DNA of 9,944 nt, taken from a virus (taxonomy: Duplodnaviria; Heunggongvirae; Uroviricota; Caudoviricetes). The stretch is from IMG/VR virus record IMGVR_UViG_2740892431_000015; one strand, 5' to 3'. Of the stretch, positions 1 to 9,944 are shown piece after piece. Under the pieces are notes generated by a model that was given only the letters and a program-made list of their open reading frames with translations, had not been told where the DNA came from and ran no database searches. Each line of letters starts with the position of its first letter. The first letter of the stretch is position 1. The position numbers and the translations under genes are program-made.

Positions 1-27
1 CTAAATCAGTAAGTTGGCAGCATCACC
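1..27 (-). mobile_element. IS1 terminal inverted repeat (IRL-type end), 27-bp fragment; element body lies outside the window to the left
   Basis: Bases 1-27 CTAAATCAGTAAGTTGGCAGCATCACC are the exact reverse complement of the IS1 left terminus GGTGATGCTGCCAACTTACTGATTTAG as I remember it; perfect 27-bp inverted match with 9918-9944. Confidence 0.85.
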
Positions 28-36
28 GGGTGATTA

Positions 37-2142
37 ATGGCTAAAGCATGGAAAGATGTTATCGCCTCTCCACAGTATCAGGCGTTAGCACCAGAACAAA
101 AAGCGCAGGCTCAGGAGCAATACTTCAATGAAGTCGTGGCCCCGCAAGCCGGAGAAAGTGTAGCGCAGGCTAAGCAGGCTTTTTATGCTGCCTATCCACT
201 ACCATCAACGAATGAAATAGACCGATCCCAATCAGCAACTCAAAATATTCAACATACATCATCTGATAATTCTCTTGCGTCAGGGTATGCAAAGTTAGCT
301 ACTCAGCAAAGAGAGGGGCTTGAGCGTTCAGCAGAACAGGGAGCCAGTCTTGGGGCTGCGATGCGCGATGCTATAACAGGCGAAAGCCGAATGACTCCAG
401 AGATGGAGAGACTGCAAAATGTCGACCTTGCCCCAGAGTTAACCTCACTCAGCATGGGTGCTCTAAAAGCTCGATGGTCTCAACTTTTCGGCTCTGACGC
501 ATCTCAGGAAAAGATTCTTCAGAGCATGGGAGCGAAATTAAGGCAGGATGAGAAGGGTAACACTATCGTTTCCCTGCCATCCGGTGATTATGCTCTGAAC
601 AAGCCGGGTTTATCGCCGCAAGACGTGGCATCGTTTCTGGCTAATGCGCTGGCGTTTACACCAGCGGGCAGGGCTGGAACGGTGCTTGGTGCCATAGGAA
701 AATCAGCAGCTACAGATTTAGCACTACAGGGAGCCACCAGCCTTGCTGGTGGAGAAGATATTGATCCGTTACAAACGGTAATTTCTGCTGGCATTGGTGG
801 TATTGGTAAGGGGCTGGAAAATACAGCGAGTGCGGTTTCGAGGGCTGTTCGTGGTGATATGTCGCCTGAAGCAAAGGCTGCTGTCAACTTTGCATCGGAA
901 AGAAATCTGCCGTTAATGACCAGTGACATGCTGAAAGATAAAACCTTTATGCAGAGTCAGGCTCAGACATTAGGCGAAAGAGTTCCTTTTTTTGGAACCG
1001 GTAAGAATCGGCTGAATCAACAACAAGCACGAGAAAATTTAGTCAGAACATTTAGCGATGGTCTGGGTGGCATTTCTGATAAACAGCTTTATGAATCTGC
1101 GACTAAAGGGCAACAAAAATTCATTGAGGCAGCAGGAAAGCGATATAACCGCATAATTGACGCTATGGGGGATACCCCTGTCGATCTCTCAAACACGGTA
1201 AAAGCTATCGACAATCAGATTGCCGTGTTAAGCCGCCCGGGCAAATCTCAGGATAGAGCCGCGGTAAAAGTCTTGCAGCAATTTAAAGACGATATCACCA
1301 GCGGACCAAATGACCTGCGTCTGGCGAGGGAAAACAGAACCGATCTTCGAAAGCGATTTATGGCGTCATCTGACACTGTTGATAAAGATACGCTCCAGAA
1401 AGCCAGCGATATTATCTACAAGGCATATACGGCGGATATGAAAAAAGCCGTAGCCAAAAATCTTGGAGCAGACGAAGCCATTAATATGGCAAGGGTTGAT
1501 CGGTCATGGTCTAAATTCAATGACATGATGGGAAGAACGCGCGTTCAAAAGGCAATAGCCAGCGGTAAGGCCACGCCTGAGGATGTAACAAAACTCGTTT
1601 TTAGCCAAAGCCCATCAGAACGTTCTCAGCTTTACAGGCTTCTGGATGACAATGGTAGGCAAAACGCACGAGCAGCCATAGTTCAGAATGCTGTAGATAA
1701 GGCGACTGATCCGTCTGGAAATATCAGTGTTGAGAAGTTTATTAATGCGTTACACCGGAACAGGAAGCAATCAGCAACTTTCTTTAAAGGCGTACATGGA
1801 AAGGAACTGGACGGCGTTATTAAATACCTCAACGATACAAGACACGCGGCAAAAGCGAACGTTCAAAACTTAAATGGTCAGCAGCTTTATGGATTGTTAG
1901 TTGGTGGTGGCATCATAAACGCAGCAGTATTAGCGGGGATGCTAAAAACGGCTGCGTTTGTTGTTCCTGCTGCTGGTGCCGTAGGCGGAGCAGCGAAGGC
2001 ATACGAAAGCCCTGTTATACGAAATGCCTTGTTACGTCTGGCAAATACGCCAAAAGGTAGCACAGCATATGACAGAGCGATCAGTACGGTCACACAATCG
2101 CTCACCAGAGTCGCACAGGCATCACAAAAAGAAGCTCAATAA
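37..2142 (+). CDS. Large hypothetical protein (701 aa), Ala/Gln/Lys-rich and probably helical, with internal Gly-rich segment and C-terminal glycine-zipper-like hydrophobic hairpin; candidate membrane-active protein (bacteriocin-like toxin, or phage tape-measure/ejection protein)
   Basis: Long uninterrupted ORF in typical-GC DNA; ATG at 37 preceded by GGGTGA; in-frame TGA at 31-33 means the frame cannot extend upstream. Hydrophobic Gly/Ala-rich stretch LLVGGGIINAAVLAGMLKTAAFVVPAAGAVGGAAKAY near residues 623-662, followed by a ~40-aa polar tail. Antisense ORFs inside it are shadows. Confidence 0.8.
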   Translation: MAKAWKDVIASPQYQALAPEQKAQAQEQYFNEVVAPQAGESVAQAKQAFYAAYPLPSTNEIDRSQSATQNIQHTSSDNSLASGYAKLATQQREGLERSAEQGASLGAAMRDAITGESRMTPEMERLQNVDLAPELTSLSMGALKARWSQLFGSDASQEKILQSMGAKLRQDEKGNTIVSLPSGDYALNKPGLSPQDVASFLANALAFTPAGRAGTVLGAIGKSAATDLALQGATSLAGGEDIDPLQTVISAGIGGIGKGLENTASAVSRAVRGDMSPEAKAAVNFASERNLPLMTSDMLKDKTFMQSQAQTLGERVPFFGTGKNRLNQQQARENLVRTFSDGLGGISDKQLYESATKGQQKFIEAAGKRYNRIIDAMGDTPVDLSNTVKAIDNQIAVLSRPGKSQDRAAVKVLQQFKDDITSGPNDLRLARENRTDLRKRFMASSDTVDKDTLQKASDIIYKAYTADMKKAVAKNLGADEAINMARVDRSWSKFNDMMGRTRVQKAIASGKATPEDVTKLVFSQSPSERSQLYRLLDDNGRQNARAAIVQNAVDKATDPSGNISVEKFINALHRNRKQSATFFKGVHGKELDGVIKYLNDTRHAAKANVQNLNGQQLYGLLVGGGIINAAVLAGMLKTAAFVVPAAGAVGGAAKAYESPVIRNALLRLANTPKGSTAYDRAISTVTQSLTRVAQASQKEAQ

Positions 2143-2161
2143 CTGGTTAGCCATGGATGGC

Positions 2162-2776
2162 TTAGATATCTCTGCTGTCTCCATTAGGAAATAAAAGATA
2201 ATATGGATTTGCCTTTCTTGCTCTCCTTGCTTCACCCGGATACCTGTTAGTCAGTAGCTTGCATAATGAGCAGAGAACAACACTCAAGAAAATTCCGAAT
2301 GAGAAGATCAATATCTCACCAAAAATCAATGGCGATATTAAATTTTCAGGATTTAATGATAAGTCAATGTTAAAAACATATTGAGCAATACCAGTAAGTA
2401 TCAATAATATAATCCCTATGGAATACATTGCTGTTTCCCAAACATCAGACAGTCTATTTTTGAATTGTTCGCTGGAGTAGTAGTTTGTTATAAAGTCAGA
2501 AAAATCACTCTCATATGCATCATCTTTAGGTGATGTTAGAAATCCTCTGTCTCTCCATACCTTCTCCCAATTAGTCGATTCTTTTTTTAAGGAAAAATAA
2601 ATATGTATTCCCAAAAGGATAGCCAAAATTGGTGTTAGCTCTAAAAAATAGAATGTTATGGAATAAATAATACTGCCATGTTCAAACTCATCTGGGACTA
2701 TCATGTATGCACAAAAATAAATTGAAAAGTACACCATGCAGATAGTTAGCAATTCTTTAGTATCTTTTCTGCTCAC
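2162..2776 (-). CDS. Low-GC integral membrane protein, about four predicted TM helices (204 aa); candidate immunity or exclusion protein
   Basis: GTG start at 2776 with AGGGGG Shine-Dalgarno about 6 nt upstream on the minus strand; four hydrophobic stretches (LLTICMVYFSIYFCAYMIV, IIYSITFYFLELTPILAILLGIHIYF, AMYSIGIILLILTGIAQYVF, ISPLIFGEILIFSFGIFLSVVLCSLCKLL); strongly AT-rich compared with the flanking genes; convergent with the 701-aa ORF, stops 19 bp apart. Confidence 0.7.
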   Translation of the reverse strand: MSRKDTKELLTICMVYFSIYFCAYMIVPDEFEHGSIIYSITFYFLELTPILAILLGIHIYFSLKKESTNWEKVWRDRGFLTSPKDDAYESDFSDFITNYYSSEQFKNRLSDVWETAMYSIGIILLILTGIAQYVFNIDLSLNPENLISPLIFGEILIFSFGIFLSVVLCSLCKLLTNRYPGEARRARKANPYYLLFPNGDSRDI

Positions 2777-2885
2777 ACCAACCCCCTTTAGCGTTGTTTA
2801 GAATGGCAATCATCATATATCCAAGACATGGCATTTGGTACATAGCTTGGGTCGGGATTTCAAGTCCGCTCCCAGTTGATGGGGC

Positions 2886-3040
2886 CGTTACAGTACGCGC
2901 ATATCCGCTTTATGTGAAACAGGAAGATTTTTCTGATATCACTGCCACAGCAAAACACCAATTTCGTGACCAGTACGCGCGCGAGGGGTATCAGTTGCAA
3001 AATTTTTTGCAACTGCGTCCGACCAGTACGCACACGATGG
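2886..3040 (+). repeat. Three degenerate same-orientation copies of a CAGTACGCGCGCGA-type (CG)n-palindrome element
   Basis: cagtacgcgcatatcc at 2891-2906, gaccagtacgcgcgcgagggg at 2968-2988, gaccagtacgcacacgatgg at 3021-3040, in a ~520-bp stretch with no convincing gene. Confidence 0.6.
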
Positions 3041-3230
3041 CGGGGGATACCATAAAACTGTTCTCTACATGAGACAGAGTGGTGGTGATGTGTTGATTAT
3101 CGGCGTATATGCGCACAGGACGCGCTATGACGATGTTTTATGCGGGTACACCAATCACATGTATCTGGTGTGATAAATCGCGTTACATGACCTCTCATGT
3201 TGTGCTGGTGGTTATCACGACTTTCTGAAT

Positions 3231-3274
3231 CTGGCCTTTGCCTGATATTTTGCGACAAGTACGCGCGCGTAGCA
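3231..3274 (+). repeat. Copy of a ~45-bp repeat ending in GACAAGTACGCGCGCGTAGCA (contains perfect palindrome TACGCGCGCGTA)
   Basis: ctggcctttgcctgatattttgcgacaagtacgcgcgcgtagca; about 80 percent identical to the copy at 4608-4652; sits just beyond the 3' end of the minus-strand 73-aa gene. Confidence 0.65.
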
Positions 3275-3297
3275 TCGACAGCATACACATTGGATAT

Positions 3298-3519
3298 TCA
3301 TTTTGTGACCAATGCGATAAGTAGCGGGATAAGAATTGATAAAATCAACAGGCCGATGATCCACTTTTGATTTTCACTGGCCTTATCTCTATTTTCATCA
3401 ATCTTATCAATAATTCGACGCTCCAATCCGTGCATATCACCGCGAATGGCAATCATCTCATTGCGAACATCAGGGAAGTGGTTGGCTTGATGTTCAATGT
3501 GTGGCGTTCTGCCTTTCAT
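3298..3519 (-). CDS. Small tail-anchored membrane protein (73 aa): ~50-aa charged N-terminal region plus one C-terminal TM helix
   Basis: ATG at 3519 with GAGGA Shine-Dalgarno 6 nt upstream on the minus strand; C-terminal WIIGLLILSILIPLLIALV hydrophobic helix; 79 bp downstream of the RHH gene on the same strand, so probably co-transcribed. Confidence 0.55.
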   Translation of the reverse strand: MKGRTPHIEHQANHFPDVRNEMIAIRGDMHGLERRIIDKIDENRDKASENQKWIIGLLILSILIPLLIALVTK

Positions 3520-3598
3520 ATCTGATCCTCACCTATCGTCACTACCTGCTGGTGTATAAAGGTATTGGCCCAAGCAACTTTCCAATGGGCACTCATGT

Positions 3599-4054
3599 TT
3601 ATACGCTGACCTTACAATCAATCACTGCTTTTAGCTTTTCAGCATTGCTTCCCTGACGCTTCCACGCGCTGTAAATATCTTTATCCCACGCTTTACCAGC
3701 TTTTGTTTGATAGCCTGCTTCATTGATCCGTTCAGCTATCACACGCCCATTATCAAATCCCTGTTGGATGGTATCGGCAATGATCTTTATAACTGCCGTT
3801 TCGTTATATGGTTTTGGTGGGATGTTCGGCTTTCCGGCAATAAGCGACGCAGCGGCTTTTTCCATGCGCTCCACCAGCCCAAGCATTCGTGAATCAATAG
3901 ACTTTTCCGGCTGCCCCAGCTTCATGCGAATCGCATCAACAAGCCAGGAGGTTTTATCTCCTCCAGAAGCGAGAACAGACCGATTAAACTCATCCTGCAA
4001 TTCAGATGGGATGCGGAACGCGACCAGATTAGATTTGCTCATTGCAAAGACCAT
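3599..4054 (-). CDS. Ribbon-helix-helix (CopG/Arc/MetJ-like) DNA-binding protein with ~100-aa C-terminal extension (151 aa)
   Basis: N-terminus LVAFRIPSELQDEFNRSVLASGGDKTSWLVDAIRMKL fits the RHH pattern of beta-strand, helix, G-x-T/S turn, helix (my pattern recognition, not a search). First gene of a two-gene minus-strand unit; palindromic operator and iterons immediately upstream. Start may be the second ATG at 4042. Confidence 0.65.
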   Translation of the reverse strand: MVFAMSKSNLVAFRIPSELQDEFNRSVLASGGDKTSWLVDAIRMKLGQPEKSIDSRMLGLVERMEKAAASLIAGKPNIPPKPYNETAVIKIIADTIQQGFDNGRVIAERINEAGYQTKAGKAWDKDIYSAWKRQGSNAEKLKAVIDCKVSV

Positions 4055-4086
4055 ATCAGTGAGTAATATCCATACAGTATACCACT

Positions 4087-4103
4087 GTATAACACTGTTA
4101 TAC
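4087..4103. promoter_or_regulatory. Perfect 17-bp palindrome GTATAACACTGTTATAC, candidate operator in the promoter region of the minus-strand RHH operon
   Basis: Read directly: arms gtataaca / tgttatac around central C at 4095; lies 33-49 bp upstream of the minus-strand start codon at 4054. Confidence 0.4.
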
Positions 4104-4149
4104 GCTCAAATATCAGCCAGAAAATAACGGACCAATCACAAATCTATCG

Positions 4150-4268
4150 CTGTGTTGTTGGTTCAGAGCTGGGCTGTGTTGGTTCAAAATGAGTTGATGT
4201 TGGTTCAATATTTCAGAAAAAACACAATAAAAACAACAATCTTTACAAATTGAACCAACTGAACCAAC
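4150..4268. promoter_or_regulatory. Iteron-like array: three direct TGTTGGTTCA repeats at exact 21-bp spacing plus two tandem inverted TGAACCAAC copies, between divergent genes
   Basis: TGTTGGTTCA at 4156-4165, 4177-4186, 4198-4207; TGAACCAAC at 4251-4259 and 4260-4268; TATAAT at 4281-4286 just before the ATG at 4300. Confidence 0.55.
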
Positions 4269-4299
4269 TATGCTTATCTATATAATCTGAGAGGCAGAA

Positions 4300-4581
4300 A
4301 TGATAAGGGACAGGAAAGCTGAAGAGCTGGAGTCAAAAGGGCTATACCGGAGAGCTGCCGCACGATGGATGGAAGTCATGCTGTTATGCACCGAGGACGA
4401 TGATCGGGAATGGATAAAGCGCCGCCGTGAAACGTGTCTGGAGAACGTGAAGCGCCCGCCCGTGAAGGTTGAGGAATTTGGCGACCTGCATAAAGCTGTT
4501 ACCGAAACGCAACACCGCATGGGGATAGCGCAACCGAACGGTAACGCCTTCCGGTTAAATGGCGGCAAGAGGCAAAGGTAG
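4300..4581 (+). CDS. PerC-family-like transcriptional activator (93 aa)
   Basis: GAGAGG Shine-Dalgarno at 4289-4294; N-terminus MIRDRKAEELESKGLYRRAAARW resembles the PerC/Pch small-activator signature as I remember it; size fits (~90 aa). Family call is from memory, not a search. Confidence 0.65.
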   Translation: MIRDRKAEELESKGLYRRAAARWMEVMLLCTEDDDREWIKRRRETCLENVKRPPVKVEEFGDLHKAVTETQHRMGIAQPNGNAFRLNGGKRQR

Positions 4582-4585
4582 ACCA

Positions 4586-4607
4586 CCAGAGGGAAATCAT
4601 CCTCTGG
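4586..4607 (+). terminator. Possible weak intrinsic terminator hairpin after the PerC-like gene
   Basis: ccagagg (4586-4592) pairs with cctctgg (4601-4607), 8-nt loop; downstream T-content is only moderate. Confidence 0.25.
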
Positions 4608-4652
4608 CTGGCGGTTTCTGGTATTTCGGGACAAGTACGCGCGCGCGTAGCA
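4608..4652 (+). repeat. Second copy of the ~45-bp repeat ending in GACAAGTACGCGCGCGCGTAGCA (contains palindrome TACGCGCGCGCGTA)
   Basis: ctggcggtttctggtatttcgggacaagtacgcgcgcgcgtagca; same orientation as the 3231-3274 copy; lies just 3' of the PerC-like gene. Confidence 0.65.
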
Positions 4653-4878
4653 CCCAATCGGTGAGGAAATAGCGGCGACCTGAATGGTCAAAATCACAAC
4701 GCAGCTATCCCCGTAAGCAGCGCTTAACGGAATAGCAGTAACCTGAATCCAGTGGGGAGGGGGTAGTCAAATCTCTACAGCCCTGACTATCCGGGACTGC
4801 CCGCCCCATCGTTTTTTTATACCCGCGAAAAATGAAATTTAATCCGGGCGTGTTTCATTCTTCCAGAGGGTATGACGT

Positions 4879-5064
4879 ATGACACCACGCGAAATAGCCT
4901 TATTGACCATCGCCAAACTTGAGCACGGAGGCCACCAGCTTACACAGGCAGATCAACGGGAGATAGAACGATCAGTTAATGCCGATATAGCCCGGCGCGA
5001 CAGGTTCCGCGAAATGATGCGAGCACCTGCCTACCAGTGGAAGAAGCCAGCGCCGCGCAGGTAG
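4879..5064 (+). CDS. Small hypothetical protein (61 aa)
   Basis: ATG at 4879 with AGAGGG Shine-Dalgarno 8 nt upstream; same strand and immediately upstream of the pRiA4b-ORF3-like gene; no recognisable family. Confidence 0.4.
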   Translation: MTPREIALLTIAKLEHGGHQLTQADQREIERSVNADIARRDRFREMMRAPAYQWKKPAPRR

Positions 5065-5184
5065 ATATGGGATTATTCCACATGTAACTTATGCGTATTA
5101 AGCAAATTTCCTTTATTCACCTTTACAGAATTGTGAGTACGTCAGTATCGTTATCCTTCCGATTCGCATTTATTCAGGATTTGC

Positions 5185-5727
5185 ATGTACCAGCTAAAGA
5201 TAACCATCCGAGACAGCAAACCACCTATATGGCGGCGTGTGCTGGTTCCAGAGCAAATCCCCTTTAGTAAACTTCATGCCGTGATCCAGTTAGCTTTTGG
5301 CTGGAATGACGAACACCTGTATATGTTCGAGAAAGGGCGTAAAGGTGATCCAGGTAGCGAGTATCGCGTATGGGGTGAGGATGAAAGCATGGGTAACGCG
5401 GCAATCACGCCACTATGGGCGGCGCTCCAGAATGAGGGTGACAAGCTGGTTTACACGTATGACTTTGGCGACTGGTGGGATTGCGTCATTGTGCTGGAGA
5501 AGCAAACACACGATACGAGTAATCAGCCCATTAGCTGCCTGCGTGGGAAAGGCACCACCCCGGCGGAAAACTCAGGCGGCTTGCATGGTTACAATGAATT
5601 GCTATTACAGGCCAGAGAGTCTGATAATCCTGAGCAGGCCGAGATCCACAATTTCCTGATGCTGGATATTGAACGCCGGGTTTACGACCTGAGCCGCATC
5701 AACGACAGATTGCAGGCTATTAACTGA
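5185..5727 (+). CDS. pRiA4b ORF-3-like family protein (180 aa), the family of the IS1096 'TnpR'-like protein; function unknown
   Basis: N-terminus YQLKITIRDSKPPIWRRVLVPEQIPFSKLHAVIQLAFGWNDEHLYMF matches the conserved IWRR...LH.VIQ..(F/M)GW..HLY.F signature I recall for this family. Confidence 0.8.
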   Translation: MYQLKITIRDSKPPIWRRVLVPEQIPFSKLHAVIQLAFGWNDEHLYMFEKGRKGDPGSEYRVWGEDESMGNAAITPLWAALQNEGDKLVYTYDFGDWWDCVIVLEKQTHDTSNQPISCLRGKGTTPAENSGGLHGYNELLLQARESDNPEQAEIHNFLMLDIERRVYDLSRINDRLQAIN

Positions 5728-6079
5728 CCCGCATGTATTCACCTGATATTGCGTTGTCAGCGCCGCCAGTATCGCGCATAACAGCGCACTGACCGGGTAA
5801 ACCGTAGCGCACGACCGTTGCGTTAGTATCACCGCCGCGCCGTATCTGGCGCGATTCATACACTGTCACCCGCTCAAGCAGTCCACCAGCAACCATGCTT
5901 TCCAGTGTGCGCCGGGTTGATTCGAGCTGGTGACGCTTATCGAACGACACCATGCCATGAAGCAGGTAGGCCACACCCGACACATCGAACGGCGGCGCAC
6001 CAATCTCACCAGTCACCCATTCGAGGTTATCCGGTTCAAAGTAGCTAAGTATCTCTTTTTTGCGGCTGGTCATTCTCAT
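5720..6079 (-). CDS. Hypothetical protein (119 aa), possibly a winged-helix DNA-binding protein
   Basis: ATG at 6079 with AAGGAA ~11 nt upstream on the minus strand; imperfect 32-bp palindrome upstream; 3' end overlaps the convergent 5185-5727 gene by 8 bp. GC-rich region with long ORFs in several frames, so coding status is uncertain. Confidence 0.5.
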   Translation of the reverse strand: MRMTSRKKEILSYFEPDNLEWVTGEIGAPPFDVSGVAYLLHGMVSFDKRHQLESTRRTLESMVAGGLLERVTVYESRQIRRGGDTNATVVRYGLPGQCAVMRDTGGADNAISGEYMRVS

Positions 6080-6901: not shown

Positions 6902-7060
6902 ATGAAAAACATTGCAGCTATCAAACGTAATAACCGCAAGATTCACGCTCGTAAGTTCCTGTCTACGCCAGAAGGAAAAGCCTGGCTAGAGCGTAAACAG
7001 AGAGAGAACGAAGAAAGAAAACTCCTTAATGAGTTGAAATGGCTTAGAGAGGATTTCTGA
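6902..7060 (+). CDS. Small basic protein (52 aa), below the ORF-track threshold: MKNIAAIKRNNRKIHARKFLSTPEGKAWLERKQRENEERKLLNELKWLREDF
   Basis: ATG at 6902 with AGAGG Shine-Dalgarno at 6891-6895 (6-nt spacer); TGA at 7058-7060; sits alone in AT-rich DNA that is otherwise noncoding. Confidence 0.45.
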   Translation: MKNIAAIKRNNRKIHARKFLSTPEGKAWLERKQRENEERKLLNELKWLREDF

Positions 7061-7224
7061 AAATCTCCAGAACGCAACAGGACGCATTCTAACGCTATTT
7101 TCATTGCTTGGTATAGGGATGTATAGGTGATGTGTGTTTAATGCGTCTGTGCGCTTGTTTTGTGCCTTATTTTGCATTTTCATAATGCAGAAGAGAACAC
7201 GGAAAACCTTAAAATTAATTATTG

Positions 7225-7262
7225 GGGTATTTAAGGGTATTTTCAGGTGATTTAAGGGTATT
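7225..7262 (+). repeat. GGGTATT(T/A) direct repeats, including two 13-bp copies ATTTAAGGGTATT spaced 20 bp apart
   Basis: gggtattt at 7225-7232 and 7235-7242, gggtatta at 7256-7263; related GGGGGTA pair at 6199-6220. Confidence 0.5.
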
Positions 7263-7330
7263 AAACTTGATTTAATTGATTAAAATATAAACAGATAGTT
7301 GTGTATCTTATTGATTTATAAGGTTATTTT

Positions 7331-7390
7331 TAAATAAAGGTAAATAAAAAATAAATAGCCATAAATAGCTATAAATACATCTAAATACCT
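7331..7390 (+). repeat. Six tandem 10-bp units of (A/T)TAAATA-type, 10-bp helical phasing (probable intrinsically curved DNA)
   Basis: taaataaagg, taaataaaaa, ataaatagcc, ataaatagct, ataaatacat, ctaaatacct occupying consecutive 10-bp blocks 7331-7390. Confidence 0.55.
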
Positions 7391-7872
7391 ATATCCCTTC
7401 CCTTATGGCTAGATTGCGAGAGGTGCTTAACGCGATTTTCAGCGCCCCCCGATCTGGAAAATCCAGAATCCCCAAATATCAGCAAGGAATTTTCTTGCGT
7501 AATCAACATCGTTTTTACCTATTAAATCATTACACAGAAAGCCTTTCTGTAATGTCTCTCACTAAACTTTCACTAAACACGAGAATGATCGGTTTTATGT
7601 CGGATCAGATGCTAGAAACAGCACCACGTCTCACAAGGACTGTAAGCGATGAAACCAGTGTTTATGCGGGTGCAGGTCAAAATATAGGCCAAAATCAATT
7701 TAACATAATAAACGTAATATGCACTAAGGAACACATAGAACGCCTTGAGTTGATGTATCAGGGGAAAAAAGTGATGGATTTTTTACGTAGGAGCACGAGA
7801 GGGCTTCTGTTGACTTTTGTATGCTATGAAACATAATTAAAGGTTTTTTTGTTTTTATTGTGTGATGTAGTG

Positions 7873-7900
7873 GATTACACAGGGGAATAGATTAAATGGT
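7873..7900 (+). repeat. Iteron copy GATTACACAGGGGAATAGATTAAATGG (ATTACACAGG family)
   Basis: Shares the ATTACACAGGG-AATA...GATTA-TGG pattern with the tandem copies at 8224-8287. Confidence 0.45.
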
Positions 7901-8223
7901 GTTCTGTTTATACAGGTTTATTTGTTAGATCAACAATTTGGCATTTCTAAACAGATGTTTGAACGTTGCCAAATGTCTTGACAACACAAGAAAAGGGCTT
8001 GCTATGCCACGCATTACACGAAATAAGGCTGTAAAAACAAAATAAATTTTAAAATTTGCACAAACGAGAAAACTCGTTAAGAAACAAGCAGAACAATTTT
8101 TAGCCAACAATTTCTGATGGTGCTCTGTAGGCCGCACTACACAAGGATTTGCGAAAGTGATGTAAAAGTGAAGAAAGTAAGAATTGCACTTTTAAGCTAC
8201 TTTTCATTGAATTTTTAGTATGG

Positions 8224-8287
8224 AATTACACAGGAATAAGTTAGGGATATTCTATGATTTACACAGGGAATATAGGGGATTATGGCA
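8224..8287 (+). repeat. Tandem pair of ~32-bp imperfect direct repeats (ATTACACAGG family iterons)
   Basis: aattacacaggaataagttagggatattctatg (8224-8256) and atttacacagggaatataggggattatggcac (8256-8287); further single cores at 8013-8020, 8136-8146, 8303-8311 and 9405-9415. Confidence 0.55.
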
Positions 8288-8459
8288 CACACATAGAAAG
8301 GCATTACACAGAGTGAGTGCTATGTGATGATTGGTAGTAACGGTAGGTCATAGTGAGCTAGGGGGTAGGTCACTGTGAACTACAATAAGACTATTAATAA
8401 AACTATATTAGATTATTAATTAGATCATAATAATAATATTCTTTATATCTATATATATG

Positions 8460-8880
8460 ATCTTTTGCCTTCCGGCGTTAGCTTCACTCTCTGGCAAGCA
8501 GCCTTACTCCGCTACCTTTCGGGCTTCGTGGCTGGCCCGTTCCGCTCACACCGAAAGCAAAGCGTTACTTTCTTCGTGTAACTTCGTTGGCGGTAACGCC
8601 CACGAAGAAATCTATTGCGCTGTGCGCAGTAAGAGTAATCACCTAACCAATCATACTGATTGCTTATGTGTTAACTCTCTCTAACTCTTAATTACCCTCC
8701 TACATTTAATAACTCTGTTATTCTCTGTAGTTGTGTAATTACTCGAAGAGAGAGCGGCTAAAGCTCAATTACACTCTGCTTTCCTCGTGTAATTTCACTA
8801 AGCCTCAATACAATTTCACTTCCTACATTCTGTAGTCGTGTAATTGTTTTCGGTGGAAAAGCCAGAGGCGACACCGAAAG
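8460..8880 (+). other. GC-enriched structured island inside AT-rich DNA; candidate structured ncRNA or single-strand initiation/origin hairpins
   Basis: Hairpin 8516-8557 (ctttcgg / ccgaaag); hairpin 8570-8609 (9-bp stem ttcttcgtg / cacgaagaa enclosing GGCG-GTAA-CGCC, a GNRA tetraloop); hairpin 8848-8879 (tttcggtg / caccgaaa); 10-mer ACACCGAAAG repeated at 8548-8557 and 8871-8880. The 75-aa ORF here has no ribosome-binding site. Confidence 0.3.
8721..8845 (+). repeat. Two direct repeats TTCT(CT)GTAGT(T/C)GTGTAATT carrying the iteron core in reverse orientation
   Basis: 8721-8740 and 8828-8845; further reverse-orientation cores CGTGTAA(C/T) at 8575-8582 and 8785-8793. Confidence 0.45.
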
Positions 8881-8888
8881 AGAATTCT

Positions 8889-8950
8889 GATCTTATTAAT
8901 CTTATCTATCTTAGTTAATCTTCTTACTTATCTTACTTACTTTATCTACT
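8889..8950 (+). repeat. Degenerate 9-bp tandem repeat (ATCTTAnnn) in a G-depleted pyrimidine-rich tract
   Basis: TCTTA at 8890, 8899, 8908, 8921, 8930 (mostly exact 9-bp spacing); only one G between 8889 and 8965 on the top strand. Confidence 0.5.
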
Positions 8951-9481
8951 TTATTATTAATAATAGCTTTATAAGCTCTCTGTGTAGCTCTCTGACGCAA
9001 GAAACAGCATTCAGGAAGGGAATCACCTTAGAAAAGGTGTTCTTTGCGTCATAATGTGTTTTATGAAGGATTCAGAGGTGTTTCATAACAGGAATGTATA
9101 GAGAATACTTTAGGTAATTAAAAATAAGGGGTCTAAATGCTTCTCTAACAGCATTAAGCAGGGTAGGGAATGGAAACGCATTGCCTACATATAATAAACT
9201 CACTACAGGGCTTTACAGGGCGTTTTATAAAGTGACTCTCTGTTTTATATCTACAATCACCTTTTCATATACCTAACAAATACAAAATAAGCCCCTTAAA
9301 TAAGCCTCTGGCGAGCTAAACAGACATTACATAAGAGAATGTATTGCTTTTATCAAAACTTCGTTAGAACGCGTTTTAGAGCGTTTTAGCGGATAATGAA
9401 GAATAGCACTACACAGAAGAGCACGAATTGCTAAGACAAATTATAACATGCTGAAAAAGATCGATTTTTTCGAAAAGGGTA

Positions 9482-9510
9482 TTGACAAATGTTTCTTTAT
9501 ATGTAATAAT
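9482..9510 (+). promoter_or_regulatory. Sigma70-type promoter candidate with extended -10 (TTGACA, 17-bp spacer, TGtAATAAT)
   Basis: Consensus -35 TTGACA at 9482-9487; TG at 9503-9504 and AATAAT at 9505-9510; would give a ~105-nt leader to the ATG at 9624. Confidence 0.45.
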
Positions 9511-9623
9511 AGGTATTAGAGGGACAGAAAAACATTCTTCTCTAAATAATCAAAATCAATGCACTTTGAAGCCGTCAGGCTTGCAAGGTGTTTTATTTCT
9601 TTTAACTGAATAAGGAGTTTTTT

Positions 9624-9812
9624 ATGAAATGGTTTACACCGGAGCACGTCGTAAAGGCATTTAAAAAAGGTGAGCTTACACGCCACCAAATAGTAATGAA
9701 TCGTAATATGGCAAGGAGTCGAGGTTATCCAGAGCGAGCAGCTTGCTTCAATGAAGCACTCAAGATTATTGATGAACTAAGAAAAAATGAAAAAGAATCT
9801 GAAACAGAGTAA
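9624..9812 (+). CDS. Small hypothetical protein (62 aa)
   Basis: Strong AAGGAG Shine-Dalgarno at 9612-9617 with 6-nt spacer; candidate promoter upstream; followed 19 bp later by a second gene with its own ribosome-binding site. Confidence 0.6.
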   Translation: MKWFTPEHVVKAFKKGELTRHQIVMNRNMARSRGYPERAACFNEALKIIDELRKNEKESETE

Positions 9813-9831
9813 AGAAGAGAAGGAGAAAACT

Positions 9832-9939
9832 ATGAGCGAAGCTACAGAAAAGAAAAGACAACCACGCACTTGCTTTCATATTCCTGATGAAGTATTTCAG
9901 GTGTTGTTTAAAGAAGCGGTGATGCTGCCAACTTACTGA
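9832..9939 (+). pseudogene. Gene truncated by IS1 insertion: native N-terminal ~28 codons (MSEATEKKRQPRTCFHIPDEVFQVLFKEA) run into the IS1 end and stop at TGA 9937-9939
   Basis: ATG at 9832 with AGGAG at 9821-9825; the reading frame continues into the IS1 terminal repeat (from 9918), so the native C-terminus is missing. Confidence 0.5.
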
Positions 9940-9944
9940 TTTAG
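9918..9944 (+). mobile_element. IS1 terminal inverted repeat (IRL-type end), 27-bp fragment; element body lies outside the window to the right
   Basis: GGTGATGCTGCCAACTTACTGATTTAG matches the IS1 left terminus as I remember it and is the exact inverse of bases 1-27. Confidence 0.85.

Follow-up and report, generated by a model that had tools for sequence, protein, structure and literature searches.

A short motif repeated in the non-coding DNA of an Escherichia coli island corresponds to a coding segment of the small terminase (terS) genes of Sf6-family phages, and the island copies would mimic the recognition (pac-like) site of a helper phage terminase, a reading to which we assign a probability of about one half. 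The copies were studied in a stretch of 9,944 nucleotides from the viral record IMGVR_UViG_2740892431_000015 (the window), in which a preliminary description had noticed a dispersed repeat family built around a (CG)n palindrome and placed at the 3′ ends of genes. The common denominator of the copies is, however, not this palindrome, but an asymmetric motif of 18-22 nt, TTTnnnGAnMArTACGCG(CGCG), whose counterpart in the phage genes is constrained at the DNA level.

The repeat copies of the window

All five copies of the preliminary description, each on the plus strand, were found again. Copy a (2891-2900; CAGTACGCGC) is degenerate and comprises the core MARTACGCG alone, with a low full-length matrix score, and copy c (3021-3036; GACCAGTACGCACACG) is equally degenerate, with several sites variable among relatives. 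Copy b (2962-2983; TTTCGTGACCAGTACGCGCGCG), which had been counted with these two as a degenerate copy within 2886-3040, carries the full motif, as do copy d (3248-3271; TTTTGCGACAAGTACGCGCGCGTA) and copy e (4624-4649; TTTCGGGACAAGTACGCGCGCGCGTA), so that three of the five copies are full. Copies d and e lie within extended units (3231-3274 and 4608-4652) which, as had been described, resemble each other across about 42-45 nt. Allowing up to two mismatches, TACGCGCGCGTA is matched four times in the window against 0.21 expected, a number reached in 0/200 shuffles, and the 18-mer TTTNNNGANMARTACGCG three times against 0.00 expected. The distances between copies (80, 53 and 233 nt) display no obvious helical phasing.

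The exact palindrome is confined to d (12 nt) and e (14 nt), where it includes 8-10 bp of alternating CG, and is kept neither in copy b, nor in copy f of the related element PA45B, nor in the copies of other satellites; it is therefore not supported as the functional core. The (CG)n tract, which varies between four and five units, has its phage counterpart in the codons TAC GCG CGC GCG. These perfect palindromes, together with the position of d and e just past gene ends in the window, had invited a structural reading of the copies at the DNA or RNA level, as bidirectional intrinsic terminator, cruciform or Z-DNA. This is highly improbable, as a scan of 2500-5200 found no terminator-like site, the palindrome is not trailed by a T-run and is no conserved feature of b, f or the other satellites, and the two repeat units, folded as DNA, are no more stable than their shuffles (z = +1.4 and +1.0), nor is 4582-4830 folded as RNA (z = -1.3), while scans of the window with Rfam (E up to 1) and for tRNA and tmRNA found nothing.

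With respect to location, copy d ends 27 nt short of the stop-codon end (3298) of a minus-strand gene of 73 aa and copy e starts 43 nt past the stop (4581) of PerC. The placement at gene 3′ ends thus holds for these two copies in the window, but not as a general rule, because d is part of a conserved non-coding block and the cargo that follows d differs from strain to strain. This block (2814..3278, plus strand), which harbours copies a-d, is 96-100% identical in relatives with differing flanking genes, and a BLAST search with it found nothing among 50,697 phage records.

That the copies belong to a genuine protein-coding gene, for example the ORF at 2794-3072, which had been singled out earlier as a possible conserved gene, or a read-through extension of PerC, is scarcely credible. 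The ORF translates as ...QFRDQYAREGYQ... and copy e is in the PerC frame, past the TAG stop of PerC; however, 1-nt indels at 2869, 3003, 3041 and 3197 disrupt every longer ORF of the block, with the ORF at 2794-3072 frameshifted in four relatives (L002, L003, L083 and L008), Pfam has no match to this ORF, and the copies are spread over different reading frames. One relative (L162), in which the motif is fused to the interior of a 61-aa gene, carries the sole ORF beginning with the motif and had suggested the N-terminus of a small protein. This candidate was rejected, as all homologues have another start, MTPREIELL, which makes L162 a deletion joint. Likewise, the copy in the ash gene of contig L066 was dismissed as conserved coding sequence, as similarity to the PA45B Ash protein begins only past the motif, at residue 94.

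A DNA-constrained segment of Sf6-family small terminase genes

In Sf6-family terS genes (Pfam PF20901, Sf6_terminase), the motif codes for F-x-D-Q/K-Y-A-R/K-A. Search patterns derived from the island copies alone match, in IMG/VR, mostly terS genes of unrelated phages, and the matches are read in frame as F-x-D/E-Q/K-Y-A-R-A. To assess this segment, 78 terS genes with a median amino-acid identity of 43% were collected via C-terminal peptide patterns, a retrieval which leaves the sample unbiased at the motif. The motif segment is the only place in these genes with frozen synonymous sites, codon usage being mixed everywhere else: phenylalanine is encoded by TTT in 65/77 (84%), tyrosine by TAC in 76/78 (97%) and alanine by GCG in 53/64 (83%) of the cases, as compared to 29/267 GCG at other alanine columns (Fisher 3e-29) and 92/141 TAC at other tyrosine columns (4e-9) of the same genes. 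In neighbouring long ORFs on the same contigs, TTT is used in 36%, TAC in 55% and GCG in 28%, and the pair tyrosine-alanine is written as TACGCG in 17%. The segment is constrained at the DNA level, and its conservation extends to phages of unrelated hosts (GC content 0.36-0.66). In Sf6 itself, nt 166-183 of gene 1 read TTTCGCGACAAGTACGCG, which occurs a single time in the 39-kb genome and to which copies d and e are each identical at 17/18 bases.

A matrix built solely from the 78 phage genes recovers the full island copies. Copy e (28.6 bits) scores highest in the window, followed by b (22.0 bits) and d (13.7 bits), and the next site reaches 3.7 bits. True terS sites score 14.2-40.0 bits, a range in which b and e fall and to which d comes close, while in the control, 51 kb of flanking chromosome, no site exceeds 12.1 bits and the motif itself was not found.

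The surroundings of the copies do not resemble a terS gene. A TerS HMM compared with six-frame translations of the islands matches at HMM positions of about 46-76 only, and local alignments of the islands to Sf6 gene 1 end at the 18-20 nt motif with no further terS. As the island is devoid of a terS gene, the copies are mimics or isolated copies rather than a native site. They could be neutral terS relics, left by recombination with a helper or by decay of an island terS, duplicated in the island and now functionless. Codon-like variation (CGT/CGG/CGA/TGC/CAC at one 'codon', GAC/GAG and CAG/CAA/AAG at others) is in line with such an origin, and so are the decay of copies a and c and the peptide MAARGKGRPPEG, reminiscent of the TerS N-terminus, in a different frame just upstream of e. 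Moreover, conservation of the copies in aligned E. coli relatives is not visibly above that of the flanks, and copy d has TAT in one relative (L099); the polymorphisms of copy b hit degenerate motif positions (2967 and 2971). Nevertheless, we consider a relic unlikely: the remainder of terS is undetectable, decay would hardly yield copies of one and the same segment, on one strand but in different frames, non-coding or non-conserved sequence of at least two other satellite types contains the segment as well, and the positions retained are exactly those constrained at the DNA level in phages.

Pac sites are located inside terS in P22 (22 bp, asymmetric), Sf6 and others (PMC9611059, PMC8022706, bioRxiv 10.1101/851345). 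Pac has been genetically defined in few phages, and binding of TerS to pac in vitro is weak and non-specific (PMC9611059). The terS-internal element would be such a TerS recognition site, an identification that builds on synonymous-site conservation; the frozen sites could also serve another cis function, as an mRNA element or as a recombination joint at the boundary between DNA-binding domain and core. The proposal of the preliminary description that the repeat is a protein-binding site is accordingly a reasonable one insofar as the motif is a DNA-constrained terS element, with recognition by TerS being what we infer in addition.

The element shares with P22-like pac sites that it is short (18-22 bp) and asymmetric, natively situated in terS in or near the part for the DNA-binding domain, and present once per phage genome. 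The island copies differ from P22 and Sf6 pac in being non-coding and multiple and in residing in an island without terS, and the sequence of P22 pac is unrelated to the island motif. Leavitt and co-workers reportedly placed, in 2013, the pac site of Sf6 within the gene 1 sequence for the DNA-binding domain, which would presumably include nt 166-183. P22 requires a single pac site; an array of copies would consequently not be required, which counts against the packaging reading.

Tentatively, and with less confidence than for the mimicry as such, TTTnnnGAnCArTACGCG(CGCG) may represent the family-wide core recognised by Sf6-type TerS, which at least three kinds of enterobacterial satellites would have copied in non-coding form, the island of the window being a hijacker of two helpers. 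The phages spanned by such a family-wide core include those of Enterobacteria, Pseudomonas, Ralstonia, Flavobacterium, cyanobacteria and others.

The host island and its putative packaging routes

An intact version of the island, PA45B, is integrated between yicC and dinD with attL/attR repeats and codes for an integrase, an AlpA-like HTH protein, Ash, a DUF5906 primase and gp20/gp16-like ejection proteins; its annotation contains no head/capsid, tail or terminase genes. Sf6 gp12 and the gp20-like protein of PA45B share 43% identity, and Sf6 gp13 and the gp16-like protein of the window 33%. These gene contents assign the window to an integrative E. coli island that is satellite-like and akin to P22-like phages. 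A literature search on this island family gave nothing specific, and one genome_contigs scan of the loci of gp16-family relatives in other genera found neither motif nor block. The island family carries variable cargo, of Abi type and other.

Of 5426 complete E. coli genomes, 253 and 543 contain the units of 65-71 nt, at a median of one place and at most 2-3 places per genome, always on the chromosome and always in this island family. Contrary to the initial description, the repeat is hence not dispersed. On the other hand, its separation from REP/BIME and ERIC elements was well founded, since about one locus per genome is not REP-like: although these elements are also intergenic and partly palindromic, they number hundreds of loci, as opposed to about one for the island repeats, which have an asymmetric core and reside in mobile islands only.

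Other satellites carry the motif in other surroundings. A satellite-like contig (L149) has two same-strand copies outside the listed ORFs (39.8 and 23.8 bits), two further contigs (L145 and L147) have one copy each, adjoining GGTAACC repeats, and three (L066, L160 and L166) have one copy each in the non-conserved 5′ part of an ash ORF. In PA45B, copy f is located about 100 nt inside attR. The motif was considered as an att arm site and rejected, since attL and attR share another repeat, GTGTACATA, and the motif is missing near attL.

Copies that are multiple, asymmetric and on one strand of a conserved non-coding block could as well be binding sites of an island-encoded protein unrelated to the terminase, such as a regulator or the replication initiator, or accessory sites of integrase or excisionase, and the copy near attR and those beside the iteron-like region in L145, L147 and L149 would suit this. 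We give this only a slim chance: the three satellite types that bear the motif differ in their gene sets, the attL side is without the motif, separate repeats for regulation or replication exist (TGTTGGTTCA at 4156-4269), and the match to phage terS would be left unexplained.

Downstream of copy e, the window contains a cos site of the phiP27/SfV/SfII/ST64B type (4752..4860, plus strand), which matches the ends of phage genomes as well as the cos-site annotated in phiP27. The equivalent of the cohesive end, TGCCCGCCCC, occupies 4797-4806, about 150 nt past copy e, and the phiP27 cos aligned with the window reads CGCCCGCCCC. All motif copies and the adjacent cos site share one orientation. The cos site of the window island, which PA45B-type islands lack, could by itself explain packaging.

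If the copies do mimic the helper site, a P22-like helper with an Sf6-type TerS would grow in a cell bearing the island, its TerS ring would recognise the island copies as it does the pac region of its own gene, and headful packaging of island DNA would then begin in the plus direction; the copies may additionally titrate the helper terminase. With a phiP27/SfV-type cos site in the same orientation just downstream of e, the island variant of the window may be able to use a second class of helpers. The use of the copies in packaging and the identity of the helper are inferred; potential helpers with an Sf6-type terS do exist in E. coli, as such genes are present in 232/5426 genomes at >=80% coverage.

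P4 and Gram-negative PICIs carry helper cos sites and SaPIbov5 has both a pac and a cos route, to which a dual use of pac and cos by the window island might be a parallel. To our knowledge, pac-type satellites described so far carry their own TerS together with the matching site. A pac site has also been found in the Vibrio PLE satellite (bioRxiv 10.1101/2024.04.22.590561). The island is like satellites that capture packaging signals in having no capsid or terminase genes and a helper-type packaging site (cos by homology, pac by motif match). It is unlike the known pac-type satellites in its proposed bare, non-coding copies of a terS-internal segment and its P22-type ejection proteins.

The terS element, frozen at synonymous sites in genes whose products are only about 43% identical, would provide a concrete candidate for the recognition sequence of a large terminase family, 'validated' independently by satellites that copied it outside genes. 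Bare helper-pac mimicry, here combined with cos, would be a previously undescribed packaging route of Gram-negative satellites, and P22-like phages would serve as helpers for an island family common in E. coli, with about 10% of complete genomes carrying it. Should the copies be inert, the odd (CG)n repeat would still have an explanation, as a trace left by phage-satellite exchange.

Variable cargo and rare recombination between copies

The segment between d and e (3298..4581) consists of two minus-strand genes of 73 and 151 aa, a repeat-rich divergent control region and the plus-strand gene for PerC (PF06069). PerC is kept in most relatives, while the part adjoining d is replaced by other cargo, including Abi, ImmA/IrrE and HTH genes, and homology among relatives ceases a few bases past copy d. 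Such a break suggests that the copies might be linkers at module boundaries, which provide homology for cargo exchange or deletion, possibly aided by a recombinogenic (CG)n tract with its variable unit number. Module joints coincide with copies in a small sample of three relatives, namely L004, an exact d x e recombinant without the intervening 1.4 kb (the whole 3298-4581 segment), L086, in which the block is interrupted directly after copy c and joined to sequence resembling the flank of the ash-type copy, and the L162 fusion.

As the main role of the copies, such linkage is decidedly unlikely. A d x e hybrid junction is present in just one of the 552 genomes that carry the units and were surveyed for it, which speaks against frequent d x e recombination, and window-type and L002-type cargo do not have a second copy in common at any shared right-hand boundary. 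Linkage would, in addition, explain neither the identity with a DNA-constrained terS element nor its conservation across phages of unrelated hosts over the above range of GC content. The earlier idea of a recombination site therefore stands in so far as recombination between copies occurs, as in L004, but this is rare. A site-specific recombination site of the attC, att or dif-like kind is not indicated, as the cassettes contain no recombinase and the att repeats of the island are different.

The Sf6 record annotates 'boundary sequences' (bsq) at mosaic joints. Such lambdoid boundary sequences are short, conserved and situated at the edges of exchangeable modules, as the island motif may be too, with its homology break beside d and the rare recombinants between copies. 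Unlike them, the island motif has five same-strand copies in 1.8 kb, and we know of no boundary sequence that is a copy of a terminase-gene motif.

Repeat copies and the structural readings of them

On the plus strand of the window, five repeat copies were located: a at 2891-2900 (CAGTACGCGC), b at 2962-2983 (TTTCGTGACCAGTACGCGCGCG), c at 3021-3036 (GACCAGTACGCACACG), d at 3248-3271 (TTTTGCGACAAGTACGCGCGCGTA) and e at 4624-4649 (TTTCGGGACAAGTACGCGCGCGCGTA). Direct reading of the region agrees with the match counts, as TACGCGCGCGTA with at most two mismatches is matched four times in the window (0.21 expected; no shuffle reaches four) and the 18-mer TTTNNNGANMARTACGCG three times (0.00 expected), while the extended units at 3231-3274 and 4608-4652 are similar across about 42-45 nt; the five same-strand copies noted in the preliminary description are therefore real. 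The palindromic core around which the family had been described is perfect in copies d and e, but only in those two, the common core being asymmetric, and copy b, counted among three degenerate copies at 2886-3040, is a full copy. The family is also not dispersed, since units of 65-71 nt, found in 253/5426 and 543/5426 complete E. coli genomes, occupy a median of one place each per genome and are chromosomal in all cases. These low copy numbers uphold the initial impression that the repeats are unlike REP-type elements, and a REP-like element was rejected on the same count. The distances between the copies reveal no phasing, and in a small sample within E. coli they are no better conserved than their flanks; copy c is decaying in relatives and copy d has TAT in one of them (L099).

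A bidirectional terminator had been suggested for the palindromic core. The terminator scan at the copies found none, the repeat units fold no better than shuffles and an Rfam search of the window returned nothing, and a terminator or cruciform was consequently rejected. A recombination site had likewise been considered, and joints do fall at the copies in three loci: L004 contains a single hybrid copy with the left flank of d and the right flank of e, without the intervening 1.4 kb, L086 is broken directly after copy c, and in L162 the motif is joined to the interior of a 61-aa gene. The copies are thus able to recombine, but as only one of 552 genomes has the d x e junction, recombination appears to be a sporadic side effect of direct repeats and not their purpose.

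A segment shared with Sf6-type small-terminase genes

When the pattern GACNAGTACGCGCGCG, derived from the window copies only, was scanned against IMG/VR, it matched relatives of the island as well as small-terminase (terS) genes of unrelated phages, in which it encodes ...W.....F-x-D-Q-Y-A-R-A... and terL adjoins. The longer pattern ATTTYNNGASMARTACGCGCGCG (about 38 bits), taken from copies b, d, e and f, the last a further copy near attR in the island of strain PA45B, matches 56 stretches, of which 29 are terS genes with a GC content of 0.36 to 0.63, 6 are other satellite-like contigs, 1 is unclassified and the rest belong to this island family. The matched terS family is Pfam PF20901 (Sf6_terminase), with members including Sf6, Sf101 and Kapi1. 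Nucleotides 166-183 of Sf6 gene 1, the terS of this phage, read TTTCGCGACAAGTACGCG, a single occurrence in the 39-kb genome, with which copies d and e are identical at 17/18 bases and copy b at 16/18. The (CG)n tract simply spells out the most frequent run of codons, TAC GCG CGC GCG.

The terS relatives were fetched by two C-terminal peptide patterns, independent of the motif segment, and their codon alignment took in 78 distinct genes (median identity 43% at the amino-acid level). Outside the motif synonymous codons are mixed at conserved residues (Tyr27, TAC 40 and TAT 24) and GCG makes up 6-15% of the codons in four Ala columns, whereas within the motif Phe81 is TTT in 65/77 (Fisher versus other columns, 5e-12), Tyr85 TAC in 76/78 (4e-9), Ala86 GCG in 53/64 (3e-29) and Ala88 GCG in 33/77 (2e-9). 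Neighbouring long ORFs of the same contigs use TTT at 36%, TAC at 55% and GCG at 28%, and only 17% of their Y-A dipeptides are TACGCG. The confinement of the codon bias to the motif, together with these controls, shows that the segment TTT nnn GAn CAr TAC GCG is under constraint at the level of DNA (or RNA) and not merely of protein; the constraint is present across phages of very different base composition.

A weight matrix built from the 78 phage genes alone scores true terS sites at 14.2 to 40.0 bits and the Sf6 genome at 32.0 bits (next best 7.4). Within the window copies e, b and d reach 28.6, 22.0 and 13.7 bits (next best 3.7), against a maximum of 12.1 bits in 51 kb of flanking chromosome. 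The same positions vary in island copies and phage genes, namely the nnn triplet, GAC/GAG and CAG/CAA/AAG. That the copies are the remains of a decayed terS gene was rejected, as a TerS HMM matches six-frame island translations only at HMM positions ~46-76, local alignments of the islands to Sf6 gene 1 stop at the 18-20 nt motif and the reading frames of the copies differ from one another.

The motif also occurs outside listed ORFs in other satellite-like contigs with integrase and primase, twice on the same strand in L149 (6997-7026 and 11596-11625; 39.8 and 23.8 bits) and once each in L147 (8350-8379) and L145, where it adjoins GGTAACC repeats, while L066, L160 and L166 have one copy each within the ash ORF, in its non-conserved 5' part. 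One such satellite copy lies directly upstream of a dense GGTAACC/GGTTACC array which looks like an origin. The PA45B island also contains repeated copies of a further short sequence, AGTTTTnnGAGTCCATAAAAAA (L126 28614, 34390, 34547), which adjoins the terS-type motif in the other satellites (L147 ~8390, L149 ~11640).

A proposed pac-like role and the adjacent cos site

Leavitt et al. are said to have placed the Sf6 pac site, in 2013, in the part of gene 1 encoding the DNA-binding domain, which would include nt 166-183. The pac sites of headful phages are commonly inside terS, and that of P22 is a 22-bp asymmetric site in gene 3, with Sf6 and others alike (PMC9611059, PMC8022706, bioRxiv 10.1101/851345). 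On these grounds the frozen terS-internal element is proposed as the TerS recognition core, and its non-coding island copies would let an Sf6-type helper terminase begin packaging island DNA; Sf6-type terS prophages are present in 232/5426 E. coli genomes. We give about even odds to the reading that accounts best for the repeats, in which a satellite carries copies of the terminase recognition element of a helper phage, a variation on a known strategy. The frozen synonymous sites could instead serve another cis role.

Some 150 nt beyond copy e, at 4752-4860, lies a genuine cos site like those of phiP27, SfV, SfII and ST64B. Its equivalent of the cohesive end, TGCCCGCCCC, occupies 4797-4806 (CGCCCGCCCC in phiP27), and all copies and this site share one orientation. 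Packaging of the island variant in the window could be explained by the cos site alone. No terminase gene follows the site, and a 61-aa ORF occupies the terS position of the phages.

The island and its surroundings

Inverted IS1 ends bound the window (1-37 and 9908-9944, terminal repeats 89% complementary), so that the 9.9-kb segment sits between two IS1 copies; strain AF3, whose island at thrW is matched by the window, has the left IS1 only. PA45B contains an intact relative, an integrative element of ~18 kb that lies between yicC and dinD and has genes for integrase, an AlpA-like HTH protein, AntA/B, DUF4222, Ash, a DUF5906 primase and gp20- and gp16-like ejection proteins, then a small gene on the minus strand, a conserved non-coding block, variable cargo and PerC, and no head, tail or terminase genes in its annotation. 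Sf6 gp12 shares 43% identity with its gp20-like protein, and Sf6 gp13 shares 33% with the gp16-like protein of the window. GTGTACATA repeats are common to attL and attR of this element; as these differ from the motif, which is missing near attL, an att arm site was rejected for the motif copies.

Copies a-d are contained in the conserved block, 2814-3278, which is non-coding, since 1-nt indels break the frame of ORF 2794-3072 in four relatives (L002, L003, L083 and L008); as a Pfam search of the block gave no match either, a coding repeat was rejected. Between copies b and c the block includes a perfect hairpin (2992-3015, CAGTTGCA-AAATTTTT-TGCAACTG), in which indels and substitutions of relatives are confined to the A/T loop. 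Homology of the relatives ends a few bases past copy d, and the cargo from there to PerC (window 3279-4300; L002 4065-6095; L003 4065-6416) differs by strain, with Abi-family, ImmA/IrrE and partner, HTH or AlpA-like genes or, in the window, 73-aa membrane-like and 151-aa ribbon-helix-helix-like genes; this stretch is a cargo hotspot and may be one for defence. At 4156-4269, three direct TGTTGGTTCA repeats with exact 21-nt spacing (4156, 4177, 4198) and inverted copies at 4251 and 4260 (6 matches, 0.69 expected) flank AT-rich sequence in the region from which the 151-aa gene and PerC diverge, and they resemble operators or a replication origin.

Six exact Chi sites (GCTGGTGG; shuffle expectation 0.2) lie at 734-5890, two on the plus and four on the minus strand, one of them at 3204-3211 just upstream of copy d, and a Chi-like GCTGGCGG precedes copy e. 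After the gp16-like gene comes a 204-aa multi-pass membrane ORF (2162-2813) on the opposite strand, at the position of P22 sieA. Relatives have a different 131-aa gene in its place, the start and first 11 codons of which (MIAILNNAKGG) are kept out of frame in the window, indicating another mosaic joint near 2781. The AT-rich part at 7000-9900 (GC 0.34-0.40) has small ORFs only, and about 3.5 kb matching it in the AF3 relative is almost without annotated genes. In strain AHB1 (L004 5596-7595) two tandem dinD genes, one island-borne and one chromosomal, follow the island, pointing to an element that brings along, or duplicates, a part of the target into which it integrates.
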